From a virus (Duplodnaviria > Heunggongvirae > Uroviricota > Caudoviricetes), in the IMG/VR virus record IMGVR_UViG_2713896798_000006: a DNA stretch of 25,620 nucleotides; one strand, 5' to 3'. The position numbers were made by a program, and so were the translations under genes. Shown piece after piece: positions 5,079 to 23,047 of this stretch (its first letter is position 1; every line of letters begins with the position of its first letter). A model generated the notes under the pieces. It had not been told where the DNA came from and made no database searches. It saw nothing but the letters and a program-made list of their open reading frames with translations.

Positions 5079-5136
5079 AAAAAGGGCGGCAGAGCAGCCA
5101 CGGAGTAAAACTGATACCGCCAAACGTCACCAGAAA
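5079..5136 (-). ncRNA. dicF: DicF small RNA (ftsZ-targeting sRNA of the dicB operon)
   Basis: Reverse complement of 5084..5136 reads TTTCTGGTGACGTTTGGCGGTATCAGTTTTACTCCGTGGCTGCTCTGCCGCCC followed by TTTTT, matching the ~53-nt DicF sequence as I recall it; lies about 175 nt upstream of dicB. Confidence 0.8.
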
Positions 5137-5175: not shown

Positions 5176-6371
<1,196 letters not shown>

Positions 6372-12693: not shown

Positions 12694-12908
12694 GGTAAAA
12701 ACGGTTTGCGGTAAAGCGAGAGTTAAGTAGAATTGCTGCGGGTGCTTGAGGCTGTCTGCCTCGGGCATGCCACCGTAAGGCAGACAGAGAAAAGCCCCAG
12801 TTAACATTACGCGTCCTGCAAGACGCCTAACATTAATCTGAGGCCAATTTCATGCTAGACATATGTAGGTTAGCCTCTTACGCGCCGAAAGGCAAGGAGA
12901 AGCAGGCT

Positions 12909-13064
12909 ATGAAGCAGCAAAAGGCGATGTTAATCGCCCTGATCGTCATCTGTATCACCGTCATAGTGACGGCACTGGTAACGAGGAAAGACCTCTGCGA
13001 GGTACGAATCCGAACCGGCCAGACGGAGGTCGCTGTCTTCACAGCTTACGAACCTGAGGAGTAA
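12909..13064 (+). CDS. hokD: Hok/Gef family type I toxin (51 aa)
   Basis: MKQQKAMLIALIVICITVIVTALVTRKDLCEVRIRTGQTEVAVFTAYEPEE is essentially K-12 HokD as I recall it; followed by a terminator; the track ORF extends upstream in frame from 12852. Confidence 0.85.
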   Translation: MKQQKAMLIALIVICITVIVTALVTRKDLCEVRIRTGQTEVAVFTAYEPEE

Positions 13065-14573: not shown

Positions 14574-14948
14574 ATGCTCATAGATTTGGTTTTACCTTAC
14601 CCGCCGACGGTGAACACTTACTGGCGACGCCGTGGCAGCACATATTTTATCTCGGAGGAGGGAAAGCGTTATCGCCGGGCTGTGGCGCTTATTGTTCGCC
14701 AGCAGCGGCTGAAATTAAGCCTGTCCGGAAGGCTGGCGATAAAGATTATTGCCGAGCCACCGGATAAGCGCCGCCGTGACTTGGACAATATTCTGAAAGC
14801 GCCGCTGGATGCGCTGACGCATGCGGGGTTGCTAATGGACGATGAGCAGTTTGATGAAATCAATATCGTTCGTGCTCAGCCAGTATCTGGTGGACGTCTG
14901 GGGGTGAAGATTTACCCCATAATGCTTGAAGGGCAGGTCAAAAAATGA
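14574..14948 (+). CDS. rusA: RusA-type Holliday junction resolvase
   Basis: PPTVNTYWRRRG...PDKRRRDLDNILKAPLDALTHAGLLMDDEQ parallels RusA (PPSNNRYY...[26 protein letters not shown].Q). Confidence 0.75.
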   Translation: MLIDLVLPYPPTVNTYWRRRGSTYFISEEGKRYRRAVALIVRQQRLKLSLSGRLAIKIIAEPPDKRRRDLDNILKAPLDALTHAGLLMDDEQFDEINIVRAQPVSGGRLGVKIYPIMLEGQVKK

Positions 14949-15766
14949 AACTGGAAGATTTACCGAAATACTACTCCCCAAAATCCCCCGGCCTGACTGA
15001 TGCATCGGCCTCAACGTCGAAAGATACGCTGAGTATCACTGATGTGATGGCTGCGCAGGGCATGACACAGAATTGGGCTGAGATGGGGTTTTCTGCGTTC
15101 CTTGGGAAAATGGGCATTAGTATGAATGACAGAGAGCGGGCAACAGAATTGCTGACAGAATATGCACTCAGTCGGTGTGATCGCGTGGCGGCGTTAAGAA
15201 AACTCCCGGCAGAAATAAAACCGGCAGTGATGCGTATTATGGCTTCGTATGCGTTTGAAGATTATGCCCGTAGCGCGGCGAGCAAAAAACAGTGCCCCTG
15301 TTGTCACGGAAAAAAATTTATTGAAAGCGAGGTTTTTACAAACAAGATCCAGTATCCGGATGGTAAGCCGCCAGTGTGGGCAAAGTGCACAAAAGGCGTG
15401 TATCCGTCTTACTGGGAGGAATGGAAAAAAGTCAGGGAGGTGGTAAAAGTTGCCTGTCCGGAGTGTGGAGGGAAGGGGGAGGTTTCCACCGCCTGTAAAG
15501 ATTGTCGTGGGCGCGGTGTTGCCATTCATCGTGAAGAGTCGGTAAAACGTGGTATGCCTGTTATCAGAGACTGCCAGCGTTGTGGTGGTCGTGGCTATGA
15601 AAGATTACCTTCAACGGAGGCATTTAATGCCATATGTAATGTAACCGATGCCATATCTCTTGATACATGGAAAAAAACAGTTAAACGTTTTTACGATACG
15701 CTGGTGGTGCAGTTTGATATTGAAGAAGCATGGGCAGAACAACAACTGAAAAAGGTGACCAGATAG
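14945..15766 (+). CDS. Putative late antiterminator (Q-like) with DnaJ-type CxxCxGxG zinc-finger repeats
   Basis: Three CxxCxGxG motifs (CPECGGKG, CKDCRGRG, CQRCGGRG) plus CPCCHGKK; located after rusA and before a promoter/terminator pair and the lysis genes. Confidence 0.5.
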   Translation: MKLEDLPKYYSPKSPGLTDASASTSKDTLSITDVMAAQGMTQNWAEMGFSAFLGKMGISMNDRERATELLTEYALSRCDRVAALRKLPAEIKPAVMRIMASYAFEDYARSAASKKQCPCCHGKKFIESEVFTNKIQYPDGKPPVWAKCTKGVYPSYWEEWKKVREVVKVACPECGGKGEVSTACKDCRGRGVAIHREESVKRGMPVIRDCQRCGGRGYERLPSTEAFNAICNVTDAISLDTWKKTVKRFYDTLVVQFDIEEAWAEQQLKKVTR

Positions 15767-15771
15767 CTTTG

Positions 15772-15799
15772 TTGATTTTTCCCGAATCTGTGGTAAATT
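15772..15799 (+). promoter_or_regulatory. Candidate late promoter (PR'-like)
   Basis: TTGATT (15772..15777), 16-bp spacer, extended -10 TGgTAAATT (15791..15799). Confidence 0.35.
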
Positions 15800-15846
15800 T
15801 GCCCTAACGATGGGCGTTTTATGCCTGACGTTAGAAGATTTTTTAC

Positions 15847-15870
15847 ACCCGTCGCTAGGCGGGTTTTTTT
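15847..15870 (+). terminator. Candidate tR'-like intrinsic terminator downstream of the Q-like gene
   Basis: Stem ACCCG/CGGGT with 8-nt loop followed by seven T. Confidence 0.5.
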
Positions 15871-15915
15871 ATGACTGAAATCACGCCAGTACAGTAAACG
15901 CGCTGGTGGTTGTGA

Positions 15916-16366
15916 ATACCGGTCTTTCAGCTTGCTGGCTTTTTCGACAAGAGTTATTGGTGTGTCACGTTAACCGGAAAAAGGAAAGTTTGAGAAACGC
16001 GATCTGGCACAGGCGGTTATTAATGCTGCCTACCTGGTGGCCTGTGCAGATGGTGAATGTGAGGCTTCCTAGAAAGCGAAGATCGAACAGGTACTGCGTA
16101 ATCAGCCTGCGCTGTCCGCGTTTACGTCAGAAATTAATGCGATTAGCGCAACCATTATCGGTCAGCTGGATACGAACTTTAAAATTGGTCGTCGTGCGGC
16201 GTTACGTGAGATCGAGGATGTGAAACACGATACGCGTGAAGCGGAAGATGTGCTGGATGTGGCGGTGGCCATTGCGGAGGCAGACGGCGAAATTGAGCCG
16301 GAAGAGCGCAAGGTGCTGGAAGAGATTGCCGGTGTTCTGGGTCTTCGTCTGGAGAATCACCAGTGA
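15916..16366 (+). pseudogene. TerB-like domain gene remnant (frameshifted, in-frame TAG, no start codon)
   Basis: One frame reads ...KRDLAQAVINAAYLVACADGECEAS*KAKIEQVLRN...DVLDVAVAIAEADGEIEPEERKVLEEIAGVLGLRLENHQ; upstream part (FQLAGFFDKS) is in another frame; TAG at 16070..16072. Confidence 0.45.
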
Positions 16367-16530
16367 CGGTAAAACTGCGCCTGGCTGTGGCTGCACTCCT
16401 GCTGTTTCTGGTGGTGATGGTGGATTTCACCAGCAGAATCATGTCGGTGCTGGCGGATGGGGTGCTGGTCTGCGGCATTGTGGTATTGCTGTGGCCGGTG
16501 ATAAAAAGAAACAGCCTGCATAATGCTTGA
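16363..16530 (+). CDS. Small two-helix membrane protein (55 aa) starting with GTG, overlapping the TerB-remnant stop
   Basis: Manual translation VTVKLRLAVAALLLFLVVMVDFTSRIMSVLADGVLVCGIVVLLWPVIKRNSLHNA; not in the track (under 60 aa). Confidence 0.3.
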   Translation: MTVKLRLAVAALLLFLVVMVDFTSRIMSVLADGVLVCGIVVLLWPVIKRNSLHNA

Positions 16531-16695
16531 TTTTTTTGTTTACTGTTTATTAAAAATACTACTGCATGGTGAATCCCCCTGTGCGGAGGGGCAATCAGCA
16601 ACCAGGTATATGTGATAATCGCGGATTCAGGTGCTGATACTGAATTCACCGGGAGGCACCCGGCACCATGCAAGAAAAAGAATGTGCATGCAAAC

Positions 16696-16723
16696 ATGCC
16701 CCTCTCCTGAGGGGCATTTTTAT
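16696..16723 (+). terminator. Rho-independent terminator (plus strand)
   Basis: 9-bp stem ATGCCCCTC/GAGGGGCAT, loop tcct, then ttttta. Confidence 0.55.
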
Positions 16724-16724
16724 G

Positions 16725-16752
16725 GGTAAAAAATGCCCGAATGGGTTCGGGC
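16725..16752 (-). terminator. Rho-independent terminator (minus strand), back to back with the plus-strand one
   Basis: Stem gcccgaa/ttcgggc with loop tggg; on the minus strand it is followed by the U-run complementary to ggtaaaaaat. Confidence 0.4.
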
Positions 16753-16848
16753 AATAGCATGAGATACTGATATTGTTGTGTTGTTATCGTGTGGATTTTA
16801 ACCAGGGTTTATCAGGCTGCGCAACTGCGTGGCCTTTTTTCATTTCTT

Positions 16849-16893
16849 GGGCTGTAGTCCCCGTGTGTCATTCAGGCTTCCGGACTACAGCCC
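16849..16893. repeat. 12-bp perfect inverted repeat with 21-nt spacer, about 45 bp upstream of the esterase gene
   Basis: GGGCTGTAGTCC (16849..16860) and GGACTACAGCCC (16882..16893). Confidence 0.5.
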
Positions 16894-16936
16894 ACTCCAT
16901 ATCTGATTTAATACACTATCCCGGCCGGGAGGAATA

Positions 16937-18787
16937 ATGACATTTAAACATTATGATGTTGTCAGGGCGGCGTCGCCGTCAGACCTTGCGGAAAAGCTGA
17001 CACACAAACTGAAAGAGGGCTGGCAGCCGTTTGGTAGTCCGGTGGCCATAACCCCTTATACCCTGATGCAGGCGATTACAGCAGAAGGTGATGTGGTGGT
17101 CAGTGGTGCAACTGAGCCGGAGTGGTACTACGTCATCGTACTGGCCGGGCAGTCCAATGCCATGGCTTACGGTGAAGGGCTTCCGCTGCCGGATTCATAC
17201 GATGCTCCGGATCCGCGCATTAAACAGCTGGCGCGCCGCAGTACAGTGACGCCGGGTGGGGCTGCCTGCAGATATAACGATATTATTCCGGCCGACCACT
17301 GCCTGCATGATGTGCAGGATATGAGTACGCTGAATCATCCGAAGGCAGACCTGAGCAAAGGGCAGTACGGCTGTGTCGGCCAGGGGTTACATATTGCCAA
17401 AAAACTGCTCCCGTATATCCCGAATAACGCGGGGATCCTGCTGGTACCATGCTGTCGTGGTGGTTCGGCATTTACCCAGGGCGCGGAGGGGACATTCAGT
17501 GCGGACACGGGGGCCAGCCAGGATTCGGCGCGCTGGGGTGTGGGTAAACCGTTATATCAGGACCTGATTGCGCGCACCAAAGCTGCATTACAGAAGAACC
17601 CGAAAAATGTGTTGCTGGCGGTGTGCTGGATGCAGGGAGAGTTTGACATGAGCGCCGCCACCCACGCACAGCAACCTGCGCTGTTTACAGCCATGCTGAC
17701 ACAGTTTCGTGCTGACCTCTCCGTGTTTAACGCGCAGTGCCATGGTGGCAGTGCTGCAGATGTGCCGTGGATTTGTGGTGACACGACGTATTACTGGAAA
17801 AATACATACGCTACCCAGTACGACACCGTGTACGGCGGGTATAAAAACAGGGAGAGTGAGGGCGTTTATTTTGTGCCCTTCATGACAGACGGTAACGGCG
17901 TCAATACCGCCACTAACGCGCCGGCAGAAGATCCGGATATTCCGGCATCAGGATATTACGGTGCGGCATCGAGAACGAATGGAAACCAGGTATCATCAAA
18001 CCGCCCGACACATTTCAGTTCATGGGCGCGCAGGAGCATTATTCCGGATCGTCTGGCAACCGCTATTCTGAACGCAGCCGGGCGCACCTCAGCCTTCATC
18101 AGTGGTAAGGCACCGGAAATCAAACCCTCGCCCGGCGGCAACACGCCATCGGGTCCGTCTGCAGATACGTCCGTTCGCACAATCTCCCTGCTGCCGGCAG
18201 CCGGAGAGGCTGCTGCGCAGGGCTGGAGCATTAAGGATGGCGGAATTCAGTTGTCAGATGGTGTATTTAAGATCACCAAGCAGAGCAATAAAACCTGGTC
18301 CCTGACGCATCCGGTGGATGACGCAATTACCCTGCTGACACAGGGCGGCAGACTGACCTGTAAGTTCCGCCTGTCAGGCGCACTGACCAACAATCAGTTC
18401 GGGCTGGGGATTTATCTGTATACGGATGCTCCCGTTCCTGATGGTGTGGCGATGACGGGTACCGGTAATCCGTTCCTGATGTCGTACTTCACTCAGACCA
18501 CTGACGGCAGAGTGAATCTGATGCATCACAGGAAAGCCGGAAACACGAAGCTGGGGGAGTTCGGCGATTACGGTAACGACTGGCAGACGCTGGAGCTGGT
18601 GTTCACCGCCGGCAGTGCCACGGTTACTCCGAAACTGAATGGAGTGGCTGGCCCGGCATTCCAGGTTATAAAAGACAGTCTGACACTGGGACTGAATGCG
18701 CTGACGCTGACGGATGTTACAAAAAATGCAGCGTATGGCGTTGAGATAGAAAGTCTGATGCTGGAGATAAATGCACCGGCAGCATAA
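16937..18787 (+). CDS. Prophage sialate O-acetylesterase-like protein (NanS-p type; SGNH/SASA hydrolase with N- and C-terminal extra domains)
   Basis: 616 aa; GQSNAMAYGEG motif early in the hydrolase domain; located between the Q-like gene and the holin, the usual site of nanS-p genes in EHEC lambdoid prophages. Confidence 0.6.
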   Translation: MTFKHYDVVRAASPSDLAEKLTHKLKEGWQPFGSPVAITPYTLMQAITAEGDVVVSGATEPEWYYVIVLAGQSNAMAYGEGLPLPDSYDAPDPRIKQLARRSTVTPGGAACRYNDIIPADHCLHDVQDMSTLNHPKADLSKGQYGCVGQGLHIAKKLLPYIPNNAGILLVPCCRGGSAFTQGAEGTFSADTGASQDSARWGVGKPLYQDLIARTKAALQKNPKNVLLAVCWMQGEFDMSAATHAQQPALFTAMLTQFRADLSVFNAQCHGGSAADVPWICGDTTYYWKNTYATQYDTVYGGYKNRESEGVYFVPFMTDGNGVNTATNAPAEDPDIPASGYYGAASRTNGNQVSSNRPTHFSSWARRSIIPDRLATAILNAAGRTSAFISGKAPEIKPSPGGNTPSGPSADTSVRTISLLPAAGEAAAQGWSIKDGGIQLSDGVFKITKQSNKTWSLTHPVDDAITLLTQGGRLTCKFRLSGALTNNQFGLGIYLYTDAPVPDGVAMTGTGNPFLMSYFTQTTDGRVNLMHHRKAGNTKLGEFGDYGNDWQTLELVFTAGSATVTPKLNGVAGPAFQVIKDSLTLGLNALTLTDVTKNAAYGVEIESLMLEINAPAA

Positions 18788-18999
18788 TAAAAAAAGCCAG
18801 CGCCCACTCTGAAGGACGCTGGCTAAAACGGGTAGATGTACTTCACATGATACTTATATTTGGCAGTACATTTTCTGACAGACAGTGACGGATGTTGTCA
18901 AGATATTGTGTCATTTATAACCTGAATCAGGGGTTGGTCGGAATGTTATCTGGCATTTTTAGCAGAGCCTGAATGCCATAATCACGGCTCCCGGCGTTG

Positions 19000-19079: not shown

Positions 19080-19286
19080 ATGGAAAAAATCACAACAGGT
19101 GTGTCATACACCACGTCAGCGGTAGGGACGGGATACTGGTTACTGCAACTGCTGGACAAAGTCTCTCCGTCCCAGTGGGTGGCAATAGGTGTGCTGGGGA
19201 GTCTGCTGTTTGGCCTGCTGACGTATCTGACTAACCTTTATTTCAAGATTAAAGAAGATAAGCGTAAGGTGGCGCGGGGAGAGTAG
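19080..19286 (+). CDS. Holin, phage 21 S-type pinholin
   Basis: [68 protein letters not shown] closely parallels S21 as I recall it. Confidence 0.8.
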
Positions 19287-19351
19287 TCGATGAATAAACA
19301 ATACGAACTGGTTGTAAAATGGTAAGCGTCAACGGAGCACCGTATTGACGC

Positions 19352-20965
19352 TTATTTATTGGTGAGTACTACGTTCCATGGCAGGAGTTCGTCAACTCGG
19401 TTGGAAGGCCATTCCGGCAGTACGCTCAGGATATGGCGCAGATACGCTTCCGGATCGATACCGTTCAGACGGCAGGTGCCGATCAGCCCGTACAACAGTG
19501 CTCCACGCTCGCCGCCGTGATCGCTGCCAAAGAACATAAAGTTTTTCTTTCCGAGACAGACTGCACGAAGCGCTCTTTCCGCAGCATTATTATCCGCCTC
19601 CGCCAGACCGTCATCACTGTAATAACAGAGGGCATCCCACTGATTCAGTACATAGCTGAACGCTTCGCCCAGTCTGGATTTTTTCGACAGCGTACCATTC
19701 TTCTCCACCATCCATTCATGCAGCGACGTCAGTAACACTTTGCTTCGCTGCTGCCTGACGGCAAGACGCTCTGACTCCGGTAATCCCCGTATTTCATCCT
19801 CGATGGCGTACAGTTCACTGATTCGCTTCAGGGCTTCTTCTGCCGTCGCACTTTTGCTGCTGATGTATACATCGTGGATTTTTCGCCGGGCATGGGCCCA
19901 GCACGCAACTTCTGTCAGTGCACCACCTTCACGTTCTGCACTGAACAACCTGTCGTAACCTGTGAACGCATCCGCCTGCAGGATACCCCGGAAGGGGCGG
20001 AGGTGTTGCTCCGGGTGTTTCCCCTGCCGGTTCGGCGAGTACGCGAACCAGACCGCTGGAGGAGATGACGAACCCACATTGCGATCATCCCGGACATACG
20101 TCCAGATACGCCCTGTTTTCGCCTTTTTCTGACCCGGTGCCAGTACCTTTACCGGTGTGTCATCAGTGTGAACCTTGCGGGTGTTCATTACATAACGGTA
20201 CAGGGCATCATTCACCGGTGTCATTAACTGGCAGCACGCGTCAACCCAGTTGGAGAGTAAGGCCCGGCTCAGTTCGACACCCTGGCGGGCAAAGATTTCA
20301 CTCTGACGATACAGTGGCAGATGTTCGCAGTATTTTCCCGTTAACACGCGGGCAAGTAATCCGGGGCCCGCGATACCACGCTCTATCGGGCGGGACGGCG
20401 CCGGTGCTTCAACAATACAGTCACATTTTGTACAGGCTTTTTTTACCCGTTCTGTGCGGATCACTTTCAGGGCACTGCTCACCAGTTCCAGCTGTTCAGC
20501 GCTGACTTCCCCCAGATAATCCAGCTCACCGCCACACTCCGGGCAACAGCTTTCTTCTGGCTCCAGGCGGTGTATTTCACGGGGAAGGTGTGCCGGTAAC
20601 GGACGACGATGGCGCGACTGTCGCAACTGGCGGGGAACCTGAGGATCGTCTTCCCGCCCACTGTAACGATCGCTGTCCTGTTCACGTTGTTTCAGCAGAG
20701 CCTCAGCCAGTTCAACTTCACGACGCAGTTTTTCAGAACGGGTACCGAACAGCATCCGGCGCAGTTTTTCTATCTGAGCCCGCAGATGTTCTATTTCCCG
20801 TTCATCTTCTTCGATCTTTTCTTCGGCACGTGTCAGTGCAGAGCGCAGGAAGGCTTCCGTCTCTTCAACCAGACTCAGTTGCTGGTCTTTCTGACGGAGG
20901 GCTTCAGCCTGCTCAGAGAGCAACCTTTCCAGCTCTGCGATGCGAATGAGGTATTTCTGACTCAT
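19352..20965 (-). CDS. IS66-family transposase (TnpC, 537 aa)
   Basis: N-terminal coiled-coil/leucine-zipper region, Cys-rich zinc-binding segment (CPECGG...CTKCDC) and length typical of IS66 TnpC. Confidence 0.85.
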   Translation of the reverse strand: MSQKYLIRIAELERLLSEQAEALRQKDQQLSLVEETEAFLRSALTRAEEKIEEDEREIEHLRAQIEKLRRMLFGTRSEKLRREVELAEALLKQREQDSDRYSGREDDPQVPRQLRQSRHRRPLPAHLPREIHRLEPEESCCPECGGELDYLGEVSAEQLELVSSALKVIRTERVKKACTKCDCIVEAPAPSRPIERGIAGPGLLARVLTGKYCEHLPLYRQSEIFARQGVELSRALLSNWVDACCQLMTPVNDALYRYVMNTRKVHTDDTPVKVLAPGQKKAKTGRIWTYVRDDRNVGSSSPPAVWFAYSPNRQGKHPEQHLRPFRGILQADAFTGYDRLFSAEREGGALTEVACWAHARRKIHDVYISSKSATAEEALKRISELYAIEDEIRGLPESERLAVRQQRSKVLLTSLHEWMVEKNGTLSKKSRLGEAFSYVLNQWDALCYYSDDGLAEADNNAAERALRAVCLGKKNFMFFGSDHGGERGALLYGLIGTCRLNGIDPEAYLRHILSVLPEWPSNRVDELLPWNVVLTNK

Positions 20966-20995
20966 GACCGTTTTTATAATGCGGTCAGGAGTTTT

Positions 20996-21346
20996 TTACA
21001 ACATTGTCAGTGAGTTACGGCTGGATGTTTTTGGCTGACGCCAGTCCAGCTTATCGAGGAGCATTGCCAGTTGCGAGCGGGTAATGGATACCTTGCCGTC
21101 ACGTACCGCAGGCCAGATAAACTGGCCTTCCTCCAGGCGTTTGGTGAACAGGCACAGACCATCAGCATCAGCCCAAAGAATTTTGACGGTGTCACCCCGT
21201 CGGCCACGGAAGATAAACAGGTGACCGGAGAAGGGATTATCATTCAGCACATGTTGTACCTGTTCTCCCAGTCCGTTGAAGGATTTACGCATATCGGTAA
21301 CGCCGGCAACGAGCCAGATACGGGTACCTGATGGGAGTGAGATCAT
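20996..21346 (-). CDS. IS66-family accessory protein TnpB (116 aa)
   Basis: MISLPSGTRIWLVAGVTDMRKSFNGL... typical IS66 Orf2; overlaps tnpA stop. Confidence 0.8.
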   Translation of the reverse strand: MISLPSGTRIWLVAGVTDMRKSFNGLGEQVQHVLNDNPFSGHLFIFRGRRGDTVKILWADADGLCLFTKRLEEGQFIWPAVRDGKVSITRSQLAMLLDKLDWRQPKTSSRNSLTML

Positions 21347-21768
21347 CTTCCCCTCCCGGTCAGTTCACGGATCAACACTGTGAGCAGCTCTGGCGATGGA
21401 TTTTCCAGCGTCATGTTACCGTGACGGAATTCCACCTTGCAGGAACTGGCACTGACTCTGGTCTGAGTGGAAGTGGATAAAGACGGCGCAATGGCCGCCA
21501 CAGGTTCTTTCTGCTCATCCGGCGTTATTTCTACAGGTAATAATTCAACGCCAGTGTCAGAAGAGGTCGTTACCGGAAGACGCCGCGAAACACGCCCTTC
21601 GTTCTGCCAGAGCCTGAGCCATTTGAAAATAACATTATCATTGACGCCATTTTCACGTGCAATCTGTGCAACACAAGCTCCAGGTTGTGATGCCAGTTCC
21701 ACCATACGAAGTTTGAATTCATTCGAATAGTTTTTACGAGGTTCTTTTCGCCAGTCCTGTAATTCCAT
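21343..21768 (-). CDS. IS66-family accessory protein TnpA (141 aa)
   Basis: HTH-containing first ORF of the IS66 operon, immediately upstream of and overlapping tnpB. Confidence 0.75.
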   Translation of the reverse strand: MELQDWRKEPRKNYSNEFKLRMVELASQPGACVAQIARENGVNDNVIFKWLRLWQNEGRVSRRLPVTTSSDTGVELLPVEITPDEQKEPVAAIAPSLSTSTQTRVSASSCKVEFRHGNMTLENPSPELLTVLIRELTGRGR

Positions 21769-22081
21769 ACTTAGATGTCCGTCTATATCAGATGGGCGTC
21801 TAAGTTACCAATTCTCGTCTGATGGCTACATACGGCGGTCAGTTTACGCTTACGTAAAATGAATATTTCTAACTGAAAAAACGTTCCATGAGGTGAGAAA
21901 AGGTCACAGGCAATCAATAACAGGACGTGATGAAAGACCCTTGCATTTGTGCGCTTTCTCTTTAGATAGCAGCAGATACTGAAAATCTGAGTTGTCGGGG
22001 AGTCAGGGATACAGCTGTGCAAGAGTTGGTCATTGTGATTCCATTGAAATCCTGTATGCCATGAAGGGCAGGATTTTATGG

Positions 22082-22513: not shown

Positions 22514-23047
22514 ATGAACGAAAAAATAAAATACGGCCTGTCGGCTGCCGTTCTGGCGCTGATTGGTGCAGGTGCTTCTGCGCCTGAAATCCTCGACCAG
22601 TTTCTGGATGAAAAGGAAGGTAACCACACCACGGCATACCGTGATGGTGCGGGGATCTGGACCATCTGCCGTGGTGCCATTCTGGTGGATGGTAAGCCTG
22701 TTATTCCTGGCATGAAGCTGTCAAAGGAAAAATGCGACCGGGTTAATGCCATCGAACGTGACAAGGCGCTGGCATGGGTGGAGAAAAACATCAAAGTGCC
22801 GCTGACCGAACCCCAGAAAGCGGGGATCGCGTCATTCTGTCCGTATAACATTGGCCCCGGTAAGTGTTTCCCGTCGACGTTTTATAAACGAATTAATGCA
22901 GGTGATCGAAAAGGTGCCTGCGAAGCGATTCGCTGGTGGATTAAGGACGGTGGCAGAGACTGCCGTATCCGCTCAAATAATTGCTACGGTCAGGTATCCC
23001 GGCGAGATCAGGAAAGTGCGCTGGCGTGCTGGGGTATCGACAGATAA
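22514..23047 (+). CDS. SAR endolysin (T4-lysozyme-like, GH24) with N-terminal signal-anchor-release domain
   Basis: Weakly hydrophobic Gly/Ala-rich N-terminus YGLSAAVLALIGAGASAP; catalytic E-x8-D-x5-T (EGNHTTAYRDGAGIWT); 177 aa. Confidence 0.8.
   Translation: MNEKIKYGLSAAVLALIGAGASAPEILDQFLDEKEGNHTTAYRDGAGIWTICRGAILVDGKPVIPGMKLSKEKCDRVNAIERDKALAWVEKNIKVPLTEPQKAGIASFCPYNIGPGKCFPSTFYKRINAGDRKGACEAIRWWIKDGGRDCRIRSNNCYGQVSRRDQESALACWGIDR

Follow-up and report, generated by a model that had tools for sequence, protein, structure and literature searches.

Gene order between Q and the holin gene

The window analyzed here, a prophage stretch of 25,620 nt, carries a plus-strand open reading frame (ORF) of 616 aa that begins with ATG at position 16937 and ends at position 18787. 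The earlier note had described it as an SGNH/SASA-type hydrolase of this length with the motif GQSNAMAYGEG, and both the ORF and the motif (aa 71 to 81) are present exactly as described. The ORF and the features around it are as follows.

14945 to 15766, plus strand: antiterminator gene Q, 273 aa, QuuQ/YdfT type (PF03589, E=4.7e-50; phrog_127, "anti-termination protein Q-like")
15772 to 15799, plus strand: putative late promoter pR', TTGATT, a 16-nt spacer and TGgTAAATT (extended -10), read from the sequence
15847 to 15871, plus strand: tR'-like intrinsic terminator, a 7-bp stem (ACCCGTC/GGCGGGT) and then T7 (terminator scan, fold)
16004 to 16366, plus strand: TerB-family (tciA-like) pseudogene, so annotated by RefSeq in O103:H2 12009 and SCPM-O-B-7615, where the stretch is identical; its translation has an in-frame TAG
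16363 to 16530, plus strand: gene for a DUF3927 small membrane protein, TciB-like (PF13064, E=4.3e-17; the phage 434 homologue is annotated TciB)
16538 to 16727, plus strand: STnc100 small RNA (sRNA) gene (Rfam RF02076, full-length match from 1 to 206, 148 bits; gathering score 47)
16728 to 16789, minus strand: AgvB anti-GcvB sRNA gene (Rfam RF02702, 96.5 bits; gathering score 56)
16814 to 16835, plus strand: terminator-like hairpin with T6, about 100 nt 5' of the nanS-p start, conserved in YYZ-2008 and PA2
16849 to 16893, plus strand: perfect inverted repeat of 12 bp within the 5' leader of nanS-p, GGGCTGTAGTCC, a 21-nt loop and GGACTACAGCCC (fold)
16937 to 18787, plus strand: nanS-p, encoding DUF1737 (aa 3 to 50), a SASA/SGNH core (aa ~59 to 379), a linker and a DUF6645 jelly-roll (aa ~421 to 613)
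18795 to 18824, strand undefined: hairpin with an 11-bp stem directly 3' of the nanS-p stop codon (terminator scan, fold)
19080 to 19286, plus strand: class II (P21-type) holin gene S, 68 aa, intact (PF04971, E=4.5e-32)
19322 to 21853, minus strand: IS66-family element (ISEc23-like: tnpA, tnpB, transposase), between the holin and endolysin genes
22514 to 23047, plus strand: endolysin (lysozyme) gene (ORF list; RefSeq annotation of the syntenic gene)

The esterase gene lies in the Q-to-lysis slot, as had been proposed: it is flanked by Q and the P21-type holin gene, and the arrangement matches the order Q-stxAB-esterase-holin of five reference phages, YYZ-2008, BP-4795, PA2, WGPS6 and Sakai Sp15. 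The companion proposal, that it replaces the cold-shock genes of Qin, is borne out by K-12, where ynfS-cspF-cspB-ynfU occupies the interval from ydfT (Q) to essQ in Qin. The flanks of the window and of Qin are homologous, with 85% identity for DUF968/YdfU, 40% for Q and YdfT, and 79% for the holin and EssQ. The stxAB genes of Stx phages and the cspF/cspB genes of Qin occupy this same location, 3' of the Q/pR'/tR' module and 5' of S, although the genes are unrelated. No stx genes are present in the window, and a tRNA search of it found no tRNA genes, unlike in 933W-like phages.

Beyond the esterase, the slot carries the TerB pseudogene, the DUF3927 gene, STnc100 and AgvB, all of them ahead of nanS-p. 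STnc100 ends in a hairpin (16696 to 16717) followed by a T run, as detected by the terminator scan. AgvB, whose strand is opposite to that of nanS-p, matches the family consensus at 62 of 62 positions, including the CACAACA GcvB-mimic motif; its function has been described (PMC4104026). The esterase gene is 148 bp from AgvB, an sRNA that likewise aids growth in bovine mucus. YYZ-2008 has an identical copy of the inverted repeat in the leader and PA2 an imperfect one; phage 434 lacks it. On the minus-strand side of the hairpin at 18795 to 18824 there is a T7 run, so this hairpin could terminate a convergent transcript and may be the terminator of a candidate PasA-like sRNA; the Pas sRNA preprint locates pasA between esterase and holin. 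Downstream of the holin gene, the IS66-family insertion is bordered by an 8-bp target duplication, GTAAAATG, at 19314 to 19321 and 21854 to 21861. The exact holin/IS junction is absent from the complete E. coli genomes of the collection, the best match being 97.4%.

An intact nanS-p allele

The sequence identifies this ORF as an intact copy of nanS-p, already known as the sialate O-acetylesterase gene of lambdoid prophages. A strong ribosome-binding site, GGGAGG (16927 to 16932), was read from the sequence 4 nt 5' of the ATG. Pfam recognizes DUF1737 (PF08410, 57.7 bits against a cut-off of 24, E=1.1e-15), SASA (PF03629, 48.6 bits against 24.8) and DUF6645 (PF20350, 65.9 bits against 27, E=4.4e-18), and phrog_143 covers the full length of the protein with a printed E-value of 0. 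In a PDB search, NanS/YjhS (3PT5) matches aa 59 to 379 (E=4.8e-121) and the NanS-p C-terminal domain 6YP6 matches aa 421 to 613 (E=1.1e-29). These Pfam, PHROG and PDB values are far beyond chance, and we regard the fold as settled because of the sequence identity to solved structures. An NCBIfam search gave no family for the esterase, and a search of the PDB for a DUF1737 structure with aa 1 to 62 returned chance matches only (E>0.5).

Ser73 and His359 align with Ser19 and His301 of NanS. Rangarajan et al. are said to have established these two NanS residues in 2011 as the catalytic pair. In six NanS and NanS-p sequences, GQSN, G145/G148, Q233-G-E-F-D237 (QGEFD) and R356..H359 (RxxH) are invariant. 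Ser73, within the GQSN motif, would act as the nucleophile and His359 as the general base of the central SGNH/SASA domain. Block IV reads RPTH, not RSSH or RASH, and the phage 86 allele has the same RPTH. The proposed sugar-binding aromatic residues Y510, Y515, Y540 and F611 correspond to F488, Y493, F518 and L584 in the 616-aa protein; three of the four stay aromatic and one is Leu. The NanS-p-like character claimed in the earlier note is thus confirmed by the combination of DUF1737, SASA and a C-terminal jelly-roll, by the aligned catalytic residues and by the invariant block motifs; the SASA domain is present and both catalytic residues are kept, the two points on which that note had let its assignment depend.

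The protein is not chromosomal NanS. The catalytic SGNH/SASA domain of the latter (YjhS, 3PT5) is 56% identical to that of the window protein, but chromosomal NanS has 326 aa, a single domain and a place in the nanCMS operon (in K-12, nanS adjoins nanM and nanC), and it lacks DUF1737, the jelly-roll and the prophage context, whereas the window protein has 616 aa, three domains and a prophage late-region location.

Relatives of the 616-aa allele

A match was found in 2185 of 5426 complete E. coli genomes, at up to 14 places per genome. The window protein is 100% identical to RefSeq WP_000143049.1 (ECO103_RS06310 of E. coli O103:H2 12009, annotated as a "SASA family carbohydrate esterase"), 99% identical to gp42 of YYZ-2008 (the esterase of an O157:H7 Stx1 prophage) and 97% identical to gp71 of phage 434; a copy in O145 RM9872 is 100% identical at the DNA level. 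WP_000143049.1, gp42 and gp71 share with the window gene its length, its three domains and its position 5' of a class II holin gene. The O103:H2 12009 copy differs solely in having no IS66-family insertion after the holin gene. In YYZ-2008, stx1AB lies directly upstream of the esterase, whereas the window is without stx; phage 434 is unlike the window in its Q82-like antiterminator, lambda-type head and different leader.

The other types are more distant. Those of 933W/phi24B and of Sakai Sp15 have just 54 to 57% overall identity to the 616-aa protein. NanS-p of 933W (Z1466/L0105) is the same as phi24B vb_24B_21/gp84, and PA2 gp82 (645 aa, 933W-type) stood in for this type in the comparison: identity to the window protein is 71% in the catalytic core and 37% in the C-terminal domain. 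The 933W type, a characterized esterase family, agrees with the window protein in its three domains, in its catalytic motifs and in lying between Q/stx and S; in the window protein, however, the DUF1737 anchor loop and the linkers are shorter. Sakai Sp15 ECs_2972 (648 aa) has a catalytic and C-terminal body like that of the 933W type and a third N-domain variant. We considered whether the window allele is the NanS-p of the EDL933/Sakai Stx1 prophage and rejected this, as ECs_2972 differs in length and is 54% identical. The 616-aa type is clearly distinct from the crystallized 933W/phi24B type, and, as judged from reviews, no assayed NanS-p allele is known to belong to it.

The divergence of the C-terminal domain bears on the substrate. 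This lectin-like domain is the most variable part of the protein, with the 37% identity between types that would be expected of a specificity module, and a review has raised bacterial glycans as an open possibility (PMC8065619). The natural substrate would then be an O-acetylated bacterial surface polysaccharide (O-antigen or capsule), and the enzyme would serve adsorption or superinfection control. We consider this very improbable: the catalytic core is 56% identical to that of chromosomal NanS, whose role is the use of 5-N-acetyl-9-O-acetylneuraminic acid (Neu5,9Ac2), cleavage of Neu5,9Ac2 and of O-acetylated sialic acids in mucin has been seen for each NanS-p tested (PMC8065619), and nothing in the window points to a bacterial glycan.

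The state of the prophage likewise raises the question of whether nanS-p is a decaying remnant in a defective element, without current function. Insertion sequences interrupt the prophage (the IS66-family element and an IS5 transposase at 5323 to 6303 in the early region), a TerB pseudogene lies nearby, O103:H2 12009 carries defective capsid and portal genes, and deletion remnants of nanS-p occur in other genomes. In the sister strain SCPM-O-B-7615, the region match is 100.0% as printed, yet the orthologous esterase is annotated as frameshifted and there are two IS66-family elements. Against decay stand the 616 intact codons of the window gene, its full identity to the O103:H2 12009 protein and to the O145 RM9872 DNA, the retention of all catalytic motifs and the strong ribosome-binding site, and we hold a functionless remnant to be extremely unlikely.

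Transcription signals and moron status

The earlier note had placed nanS-p under late, Q-dependent transcription. The -10 region of the putative pR' is conserved in Qin and phage 434, as seen in an alignment; we infer the promoter rather than read it from the consensus scan, because its score falls short of the threshold of 9/12 used there. The hairpin annotated as a terminator in phage 434 aligns with the tR'-like hairpin, which is conserved in Qin as well. Two further terminator-like hairpins between tR' and nanS-p were detected by the terminator scan, and 12 terminator-like sites were observed in the region, compared to 3.2 expected. At the scan threshold, no plus-strand sigma-70 match is found between 15600 and 16936, although a consensus scan could miss a promoter that is weak or not of the sigma-70 type; in the curated record of phage 434, no promoter is annotated ahead of the esterase gene. 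Since a promoter-like site and a terminator are conserved after Q, late, Q-dependent expression of nanS-p is well supported, if indirectly, and the proposal stands on that footing. Transcription would start from the pR'-like promoter just after Q, and RNA polymerase would pass tR' and the two further hairpins only when modified by Q. In published qPCR measurements, nanS-p increased by 1 to 2.4 logs on mitomycin C (PMC10462455).

The GC content of nanS-p is 55.5%, compared to 49.1% and 46.6% in its flanks. In the strict sense, a moron is an autonomous transcription unit, which needs its own promoter. Several moron traits are evident: hairpins flank the gene (16814 to 16835 and 18795 to 18824), its base composition deviates, it is missing from Qin, and GN03204 has a remnant of it. 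For the genomes that match nt 1 to 227 only, a stand-alone DUF1737 gene had been a candidate; the GN03204 case proved to be a deletion remnant of nanS-p. The description of the gene as a moron is thus upheld by the flanking terminator, base composition and presence/absence pattern but not by a promoter of its own, which the consensus scan did not find, and moron status is for this reason only partly shown.

Probable release of the esterase and proposed benefit to the lysogen

NanS-p enzymes make the O-acetylated sialic acids of gut mucus usable for pathogenic E. coli, and EHEC genomes typically carry several copies. With the identity, architecture, catalytic residues, position and flanking signals documented above, the window gene very probably encodes a sialate O-acetylesterase, belongs to the late operon and has a product that is released by lysis. 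The enzyme would remove O-acetyl groups from Neu5,9Ac2 and O-acetylated mucin sialoglycans, yielding Neu5Ac for catabolism by E. coli. With a late-operon location and Q-dependent read-through as proposed, the esterase and the lysis proteins would be produced at the same time. Neither a signal peptide nor a hydrophobic segment is present in the esterase (the maximum 19-residue Kyte-Doolittle mean is 0.97), so that it would leave the cell upon lysis by holin and endolysin; surviving lysogen siblings would then profit from the released enzyme.

For EDL933 and O104:H4, each NanS-p allele assayed proved to be an active esterase that supports growth on Neu5,9Ac2 (review, PMC8065619). Z3342 of CP-933V, in the O island encoding stx1A and stx1B, is among the ten most abundant EDL933 supernatant proteins, also in T1SS, T2SS and T3SS mutants (PMC12962677). 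We infer that Z3342 is a NanS-p gene, because ECs_2972, the Sakai gene beside stx1B, is one. In the prophage studied here, lytic release may be impaired, since the IS66-family element parts the holin gene from the endolysin gene and an IS5 element lies in the early region. Since RefSeq already contains the identical protein, the finding of a further intact copy, here in a non-Stx prophage of the O103:H2 lineage, is not new in itself.

DUF1737 as a possible capsid anchor

An alternative to the lysogen-benefit model is that the protein is mainly a virion component, in which DUF1737 docks on capsid hexons and displays the esterase and lectin domains. It would help the phage to bind or penetrate mucus or to act on O-acetylated surface glycans, and nanS-p would be a late structural gene and not a moron that benefits the lysogen. 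Such a role does not conflict with the enzymatic identity; only the beneficiary would be another. A precedent is provided by phi24B, in which cryo-EM and mass spectrometry showed gp84 as a decoration of the central capsid hexons (T=9), attached through DUF1737 (bioRxiv 10.64898/2026.04.10.717836). The window protein has DUF1737, its aa 1 to 34 are nearly identical to those of the 933W type, and late timing fits a structural protein. However, the anchor loop is different: VAITPYTLMQ stands in place of LISTAGYGAEFIQ, which contains the Tyr42 "tooth," and is 3 to 5 residues shorter, with a Tyr (Y41) in another register. The SSP motifs proposed for self-cleavage are also missing, with AEGDVVVSG and PSPGGNTPSGPS in place of the SISSP and SSPSG of the 933W type. 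On this evidence, a mainly structural role is conceivable but unlikely.

The distribution of N-domains among phage heads is similarly two-sided. BP-4795 and WGPS6 combine a 933W-type catalytic and C-terminal body with the N-domain of the window protein and the 645-aa capsid protein of the window's lineage. The type-1 N-domain occurs in about 105 phage records and the 645-aa capsid protein in about 93, many accessions being common to both, and the type-3 N-domain accompanies 11 of 12 Sp15-type heads. However, the type-1 N-domain is also found with an unrelated lambda E-type capsid protein in LC645429-36, a type-1-like variant is present in phage 434, and NC_004913 and HUN/2013 have the type-3 N-domain without an Sp15-type head. 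The association between N-domain and capsid is, moreover, confounded by whole-genome relatedness, and the three capsid proteins have no detectable sequence similarity among them. That DUF1737 is a general, exchangeable capsid anchor, which would place the 616-aa allele on siphovirus capsids built from the 645-aa protease-capsid fusion protein, is accordingly a speculative and rather doubtful proposal.

We favor the late-expressed, lysis-released esterase that benefits the lysogen. If the capsid-anchor proposal is true, nanS-p would be a structural mucus-interaction module of the phage, not a lysogen-benefit moron, and selection for a match between anchor and capsid would have left its trace in the BP-4795 and WGPS6 recombinants, which have the enzyme body of the podovirus 933W but acquired the window's type of N-domain along with the head. 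Domain-level mosaics of this kind could provide a cheap test of the recent capsid-decoration claim.

Identity of the esterase gene

The 616-aa open reading frame that the earlier note had read as a NanS-p-like esterase was found exactly at 16937..18787 (+), with an ATG start, a GGGAGG ribosome-binding site 4 nt ahead of it and the GQSNAMAYGEG motif at aa 71-81. Three Pfam domains scored above the curated cut-off:

aa 3-50, DUF1737
aa 66-262, SASA
aa 467-577, DUF6645

The PHROG family phrog_143 matched the protein end to end, and a search of solved structures returned NanS/YjhS 3PT5 over aa 59-379 (E=4.8e-121) and 6YP6, the crystallised NanS-p C-terminal domain, over aa 421-613 (E=1.1e-29). An open reading frame with NanS-p domains is confirmed, far beyond chance. 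We aligned the window protein with K-12 NanS, the 933W-type NanS-p (Z1466/L0105 of 933W, represented by PA2 gp82) and close relatives. NanS Ser19 and His301 correspond to Ser73 and His359 of the window protein, and there is no variation in GQSN, the conserved glycines, QGEFD or RxxH. In block IV the sequence is RPTH, previously noted as a variant for phage 86 (PMC10462455); three of the four sugar-binding aromatics proposed for the phi24B domain are still aromatic, and the other is Leu. The SASA domain and the aligned catalytic pair, both of which were checked for, bear out the identification together with the structure matches. The gene shows all testable defining features of nanS-p and does not qualify as chromosomal nanS.

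Its sequence equals that of WP_000143049.1 from E. coli O103:H2 str. 12009 (100% identity; RefSeq "SASA family carbohydrate esterase"). Identity is 99% with gp42 of YYZ-2008, an Stx1 prophage of O157:H7, and 97% with gp71 of classical phage 434, whereas the 645-648-aa type of 933W-like phages and Sakai Sp15 reaches only 54-57%; relative to PA2, the catalytic core retains 71% identity and the C-terminal domain 37%. The family is very common, with matches in 2185 of 5426 complete E. coli genomes, at up to 14 places per genome, and in 353 phage records, mostly Stx phages. The window gene is an already known one, since RefSeq contains an identical protein, the family is biochemically characterised, and its position, diversity and flanking small RNAs (sRNAs) have been described (PMC10462455, PMC8065619, Pas sRNA preprint).

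Contents of the Q-to-holin slot

The prophage in the window is lambdoid, its immunity region is Rac-like, and in related genomes it is integrated beside potC. Genes for DUF968, RusA and Q all lie upstream of the esterase. From Q to the insertion after the holin, the following accompany the esterase:

14945-15766, Q (273 aa, PF03589 type)
16004-16366, TerB-family (tciA-like) pseudogene with an in-frame internal stop, between Q and the esterase
16363-16530, intact DUF3927 (tciB-like) membrane protein gene, right after the pseudogene
16538-16727, + strand, full-length STnc100 sRNA
16728-16789, - strand, AgvB anti-GcvB sRNA (62/62 positions equal to the Rfam consensus)
19080-19286, intact P21-type holin (68 aa), downstream of the esterase
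19322-21853, IS66-family element (ISEc23-like, 2532 bp), between holin and endolysin

The order Q, (tRNAs), stxAB, esterase, holin is found in YYZ-2008, BP-4795, PA2, WGPS6 and Sakai Sp15. With Q upstream, the holin downstream and the esterase in the same position in these five reference phages, the proposed Q-to-lysis placement stands. No stx or tRNA genes were found within the window, and the TerB pseudogene and DUF3927 gene (16004-16530) occupy the part of the slot that holds tRNAs and stx in Stx phages. STnc100 and AgvB sit back to back, directly upstream of nanS-p. A growth advantage of EHEC in bovine rectal mucus has been reported for AgvB (PMC4104026), so two mucus-related functions, AgvB and nanS-p, lie 148 bp apart. 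The comparison with Qin was also positionally correct: K-12 Qin carries ynfS, cspF, cspB and ynfU between ydfT (Q) and essQ, placing the cold-shock genes in the equivalent slot between homologous flanks, whose proteins share 85% (DUF968/YdfU), 40% (Q) and 79% (holin) identity with those of the window.

The G+C content of nanS-p is 55.5%, against 49.1% and 46.6% in its flanks. Related elements lack nanS-p or carry a truncated form. The higher G+C content and this patchy presence fit an accessory insert. A sister strain has a frameshifted copy. In the blood isolate E. coli GN03204 (L011:2244-4347), the equivalent slot has three tRNA genes and a DUF3927 gene, with the anti-adaptor gene iraM on the other strand; nanS-p is reduced there to a 186-bp DUF1737 remnant. 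The Rac/Qin-like prophage of the window carries other insertions and small RNAs:

5084-5135, - strand, DicF sRNA
5323-6303, - strand, IS5-family (ISKpn26-like) transposase gene, in the early left region beside DicF
12740-12914, + strand, sok antitoxin RNA with hokD

Putative signals for late transcription

Around nanS-p we found the following signals:

15772-15799, promoter-like site right after the Q stop (TTGATT, 16-nt spacer, TGgTAAATT)
15847-15871, GC-rich 7-bp hairpin with a T7 run, after the promoter-like site
16696-16717 and 16814-16835, two further terminator-like hairpins ahead of the esterase
16849-16893, 12-bp perfect inverted repeat in the nanS-p 5' leader (GGGCTGTAGTCC, 21-nt loop, GGACTACAGCCC)
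18795-18824 (region 18788-18900, - strand), hairpin whose T7 run belongs to the minus strand

Qin and phage 434 both keep the promoter-like site and the T7 hairpin, the latter being annotated as a terminator in the curated phage 434 record; together they appear to form a lambdoid pR'/tR' layout. Terminator-like sites in the region number 12, against 3.2 expected from shuffles, and a sigma-70 scan of the region detected no + strand site upstream of nanS-p. Because of the putative pR'/tR' layout, the extra hairpins and the lack of an upstream sigma-70 site, nanS-p expression most likely depends on Q-modified polymerase. In agreement with this, nanS-p rose 1-2.4 logs on mitomycin C in published qPCR (PMC10462455). 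Late transcription, as the earlier note had it, is thus supported by the post-Q signals and published induction, while the term moron applies in part: the accessory-insert traits are present, but the scan found no promoter of its own, the mark of a strict moron.

Transcription starting at the putative pR' and ending at the tR' hairpin (15800-15871) would yield a short terminated RNA of ~65 nt with two hairpins, comparable to lambda 6S RNA. YYZ-2008 has an identical copy of the leader inverted repeat and PA2 an imperfect one, while phage 434 lacks it. The hairpin at 18795-18824 may terminate a transcript that runs towards nanS-p from the opposite strand, possibly a PasA-like sRNA; a 2026 preprint locates PasA between esterase and holin, and the window RusA, TerB and DUF1627 match its "PasA conserved genes" (Pas sRNA preprint).

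Possible capsid decoration

The T=9 capsid of phi24B is decorated by gp84, a NanS-p of the 933W type: a DUF1737 hexamer plugs the central hexon via a Tyr42-bearing loop, and gp84 undergoes self-processing, for which SSP motifs are the proposed cleavage sites (2026 preprint, bioRxiv 10.64898/2026.04.10.717836). That NanS-p is mainly a virion component, docking on capsid hexons through DUF1737 in this way, seems to us unlikely here. Residues 1-34 of the window protein are nearly identical to gp84, but its anchor loop is shorter and different, and it has no SSP motifs. We compared N-domain variants with head genes across phage records to see if the two go together. BP-4795 and WGPS6 have a 933W-type catalytic and C-terminal body yet the window's N-domain, and they also carry a 645-aa capsid protein 99% identical to that of YYZ-2008 and the window's lineage. 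The window's DUF1737 variant (type 1) occurs in ~105 records and this capsid protein in ~93, with many accessions in common, and the variant of Sakai Sp15 ECs_2972 (type 3) accompanies 11 of 12 Sp15-type heads. However, Stx1a phages LC645429-36 combine type 1 with a lambda E-type capsid protein, phage 434 pairs a type-1-like variant with a lambda head, and NC_004913 and HUN/2013 have type 3 without an Sp15-type head. The association is partial and confounded by whole-genome relatedness, and no sequence similarity was detectable among the three capsid proteins. NanS-p genes are mosaic at the domain level: in BP-4795 (L014:14001-15938) and WGPS6 (L015:5501-7438), DUF1737 of the window type (window 16937-17107) is joined to the 933W-type body at a breakpoint in the linker.

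Probable release and function

No hydrophobic segment was found anywhere in the window protein, and cytoplasmic retention until lysis is therefore expected; the esterase would be made late, kept in the cytoplasm and freed at lysis. Z3342 of CP-933V, part of the O island that carries stx1A and stx1B, ranks among the top ten proteins by abundance in EDL933 supernatant, T1SS, T2SS and T3SS mutants included (2026 secretome, PMC12962677). We infer that Z3342 is a NanS-p gene, because the Sakai gene adjoining stx1B, ECs_2972, is NanS-p. Release from the window prophage itself may be impaired, since the IS66-family element splits holin from endolysin and an IS5 element lies in the early region. The IS66-family insertion is 35 bp past the holin stop and, with its 8-bp target duplications (GTAAAATG), spans 19314-21861; ISEc23 is likewise found beside a class II holin in several more E. 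coli genomes, a hint of site preference.

All tested NanS-p alleles of EDL933 and O104:H4 are reported to be active Neu5,9Ac2 esterases, to support growth on Neu5,9Ac2 and to de-O-acetylate mucin glycans (review PMC8065619). The best explanation of the window protein, and one that we consider very probable from its sequence and setting, is a late-expressed sialate O-acetylesterase released by lysis.
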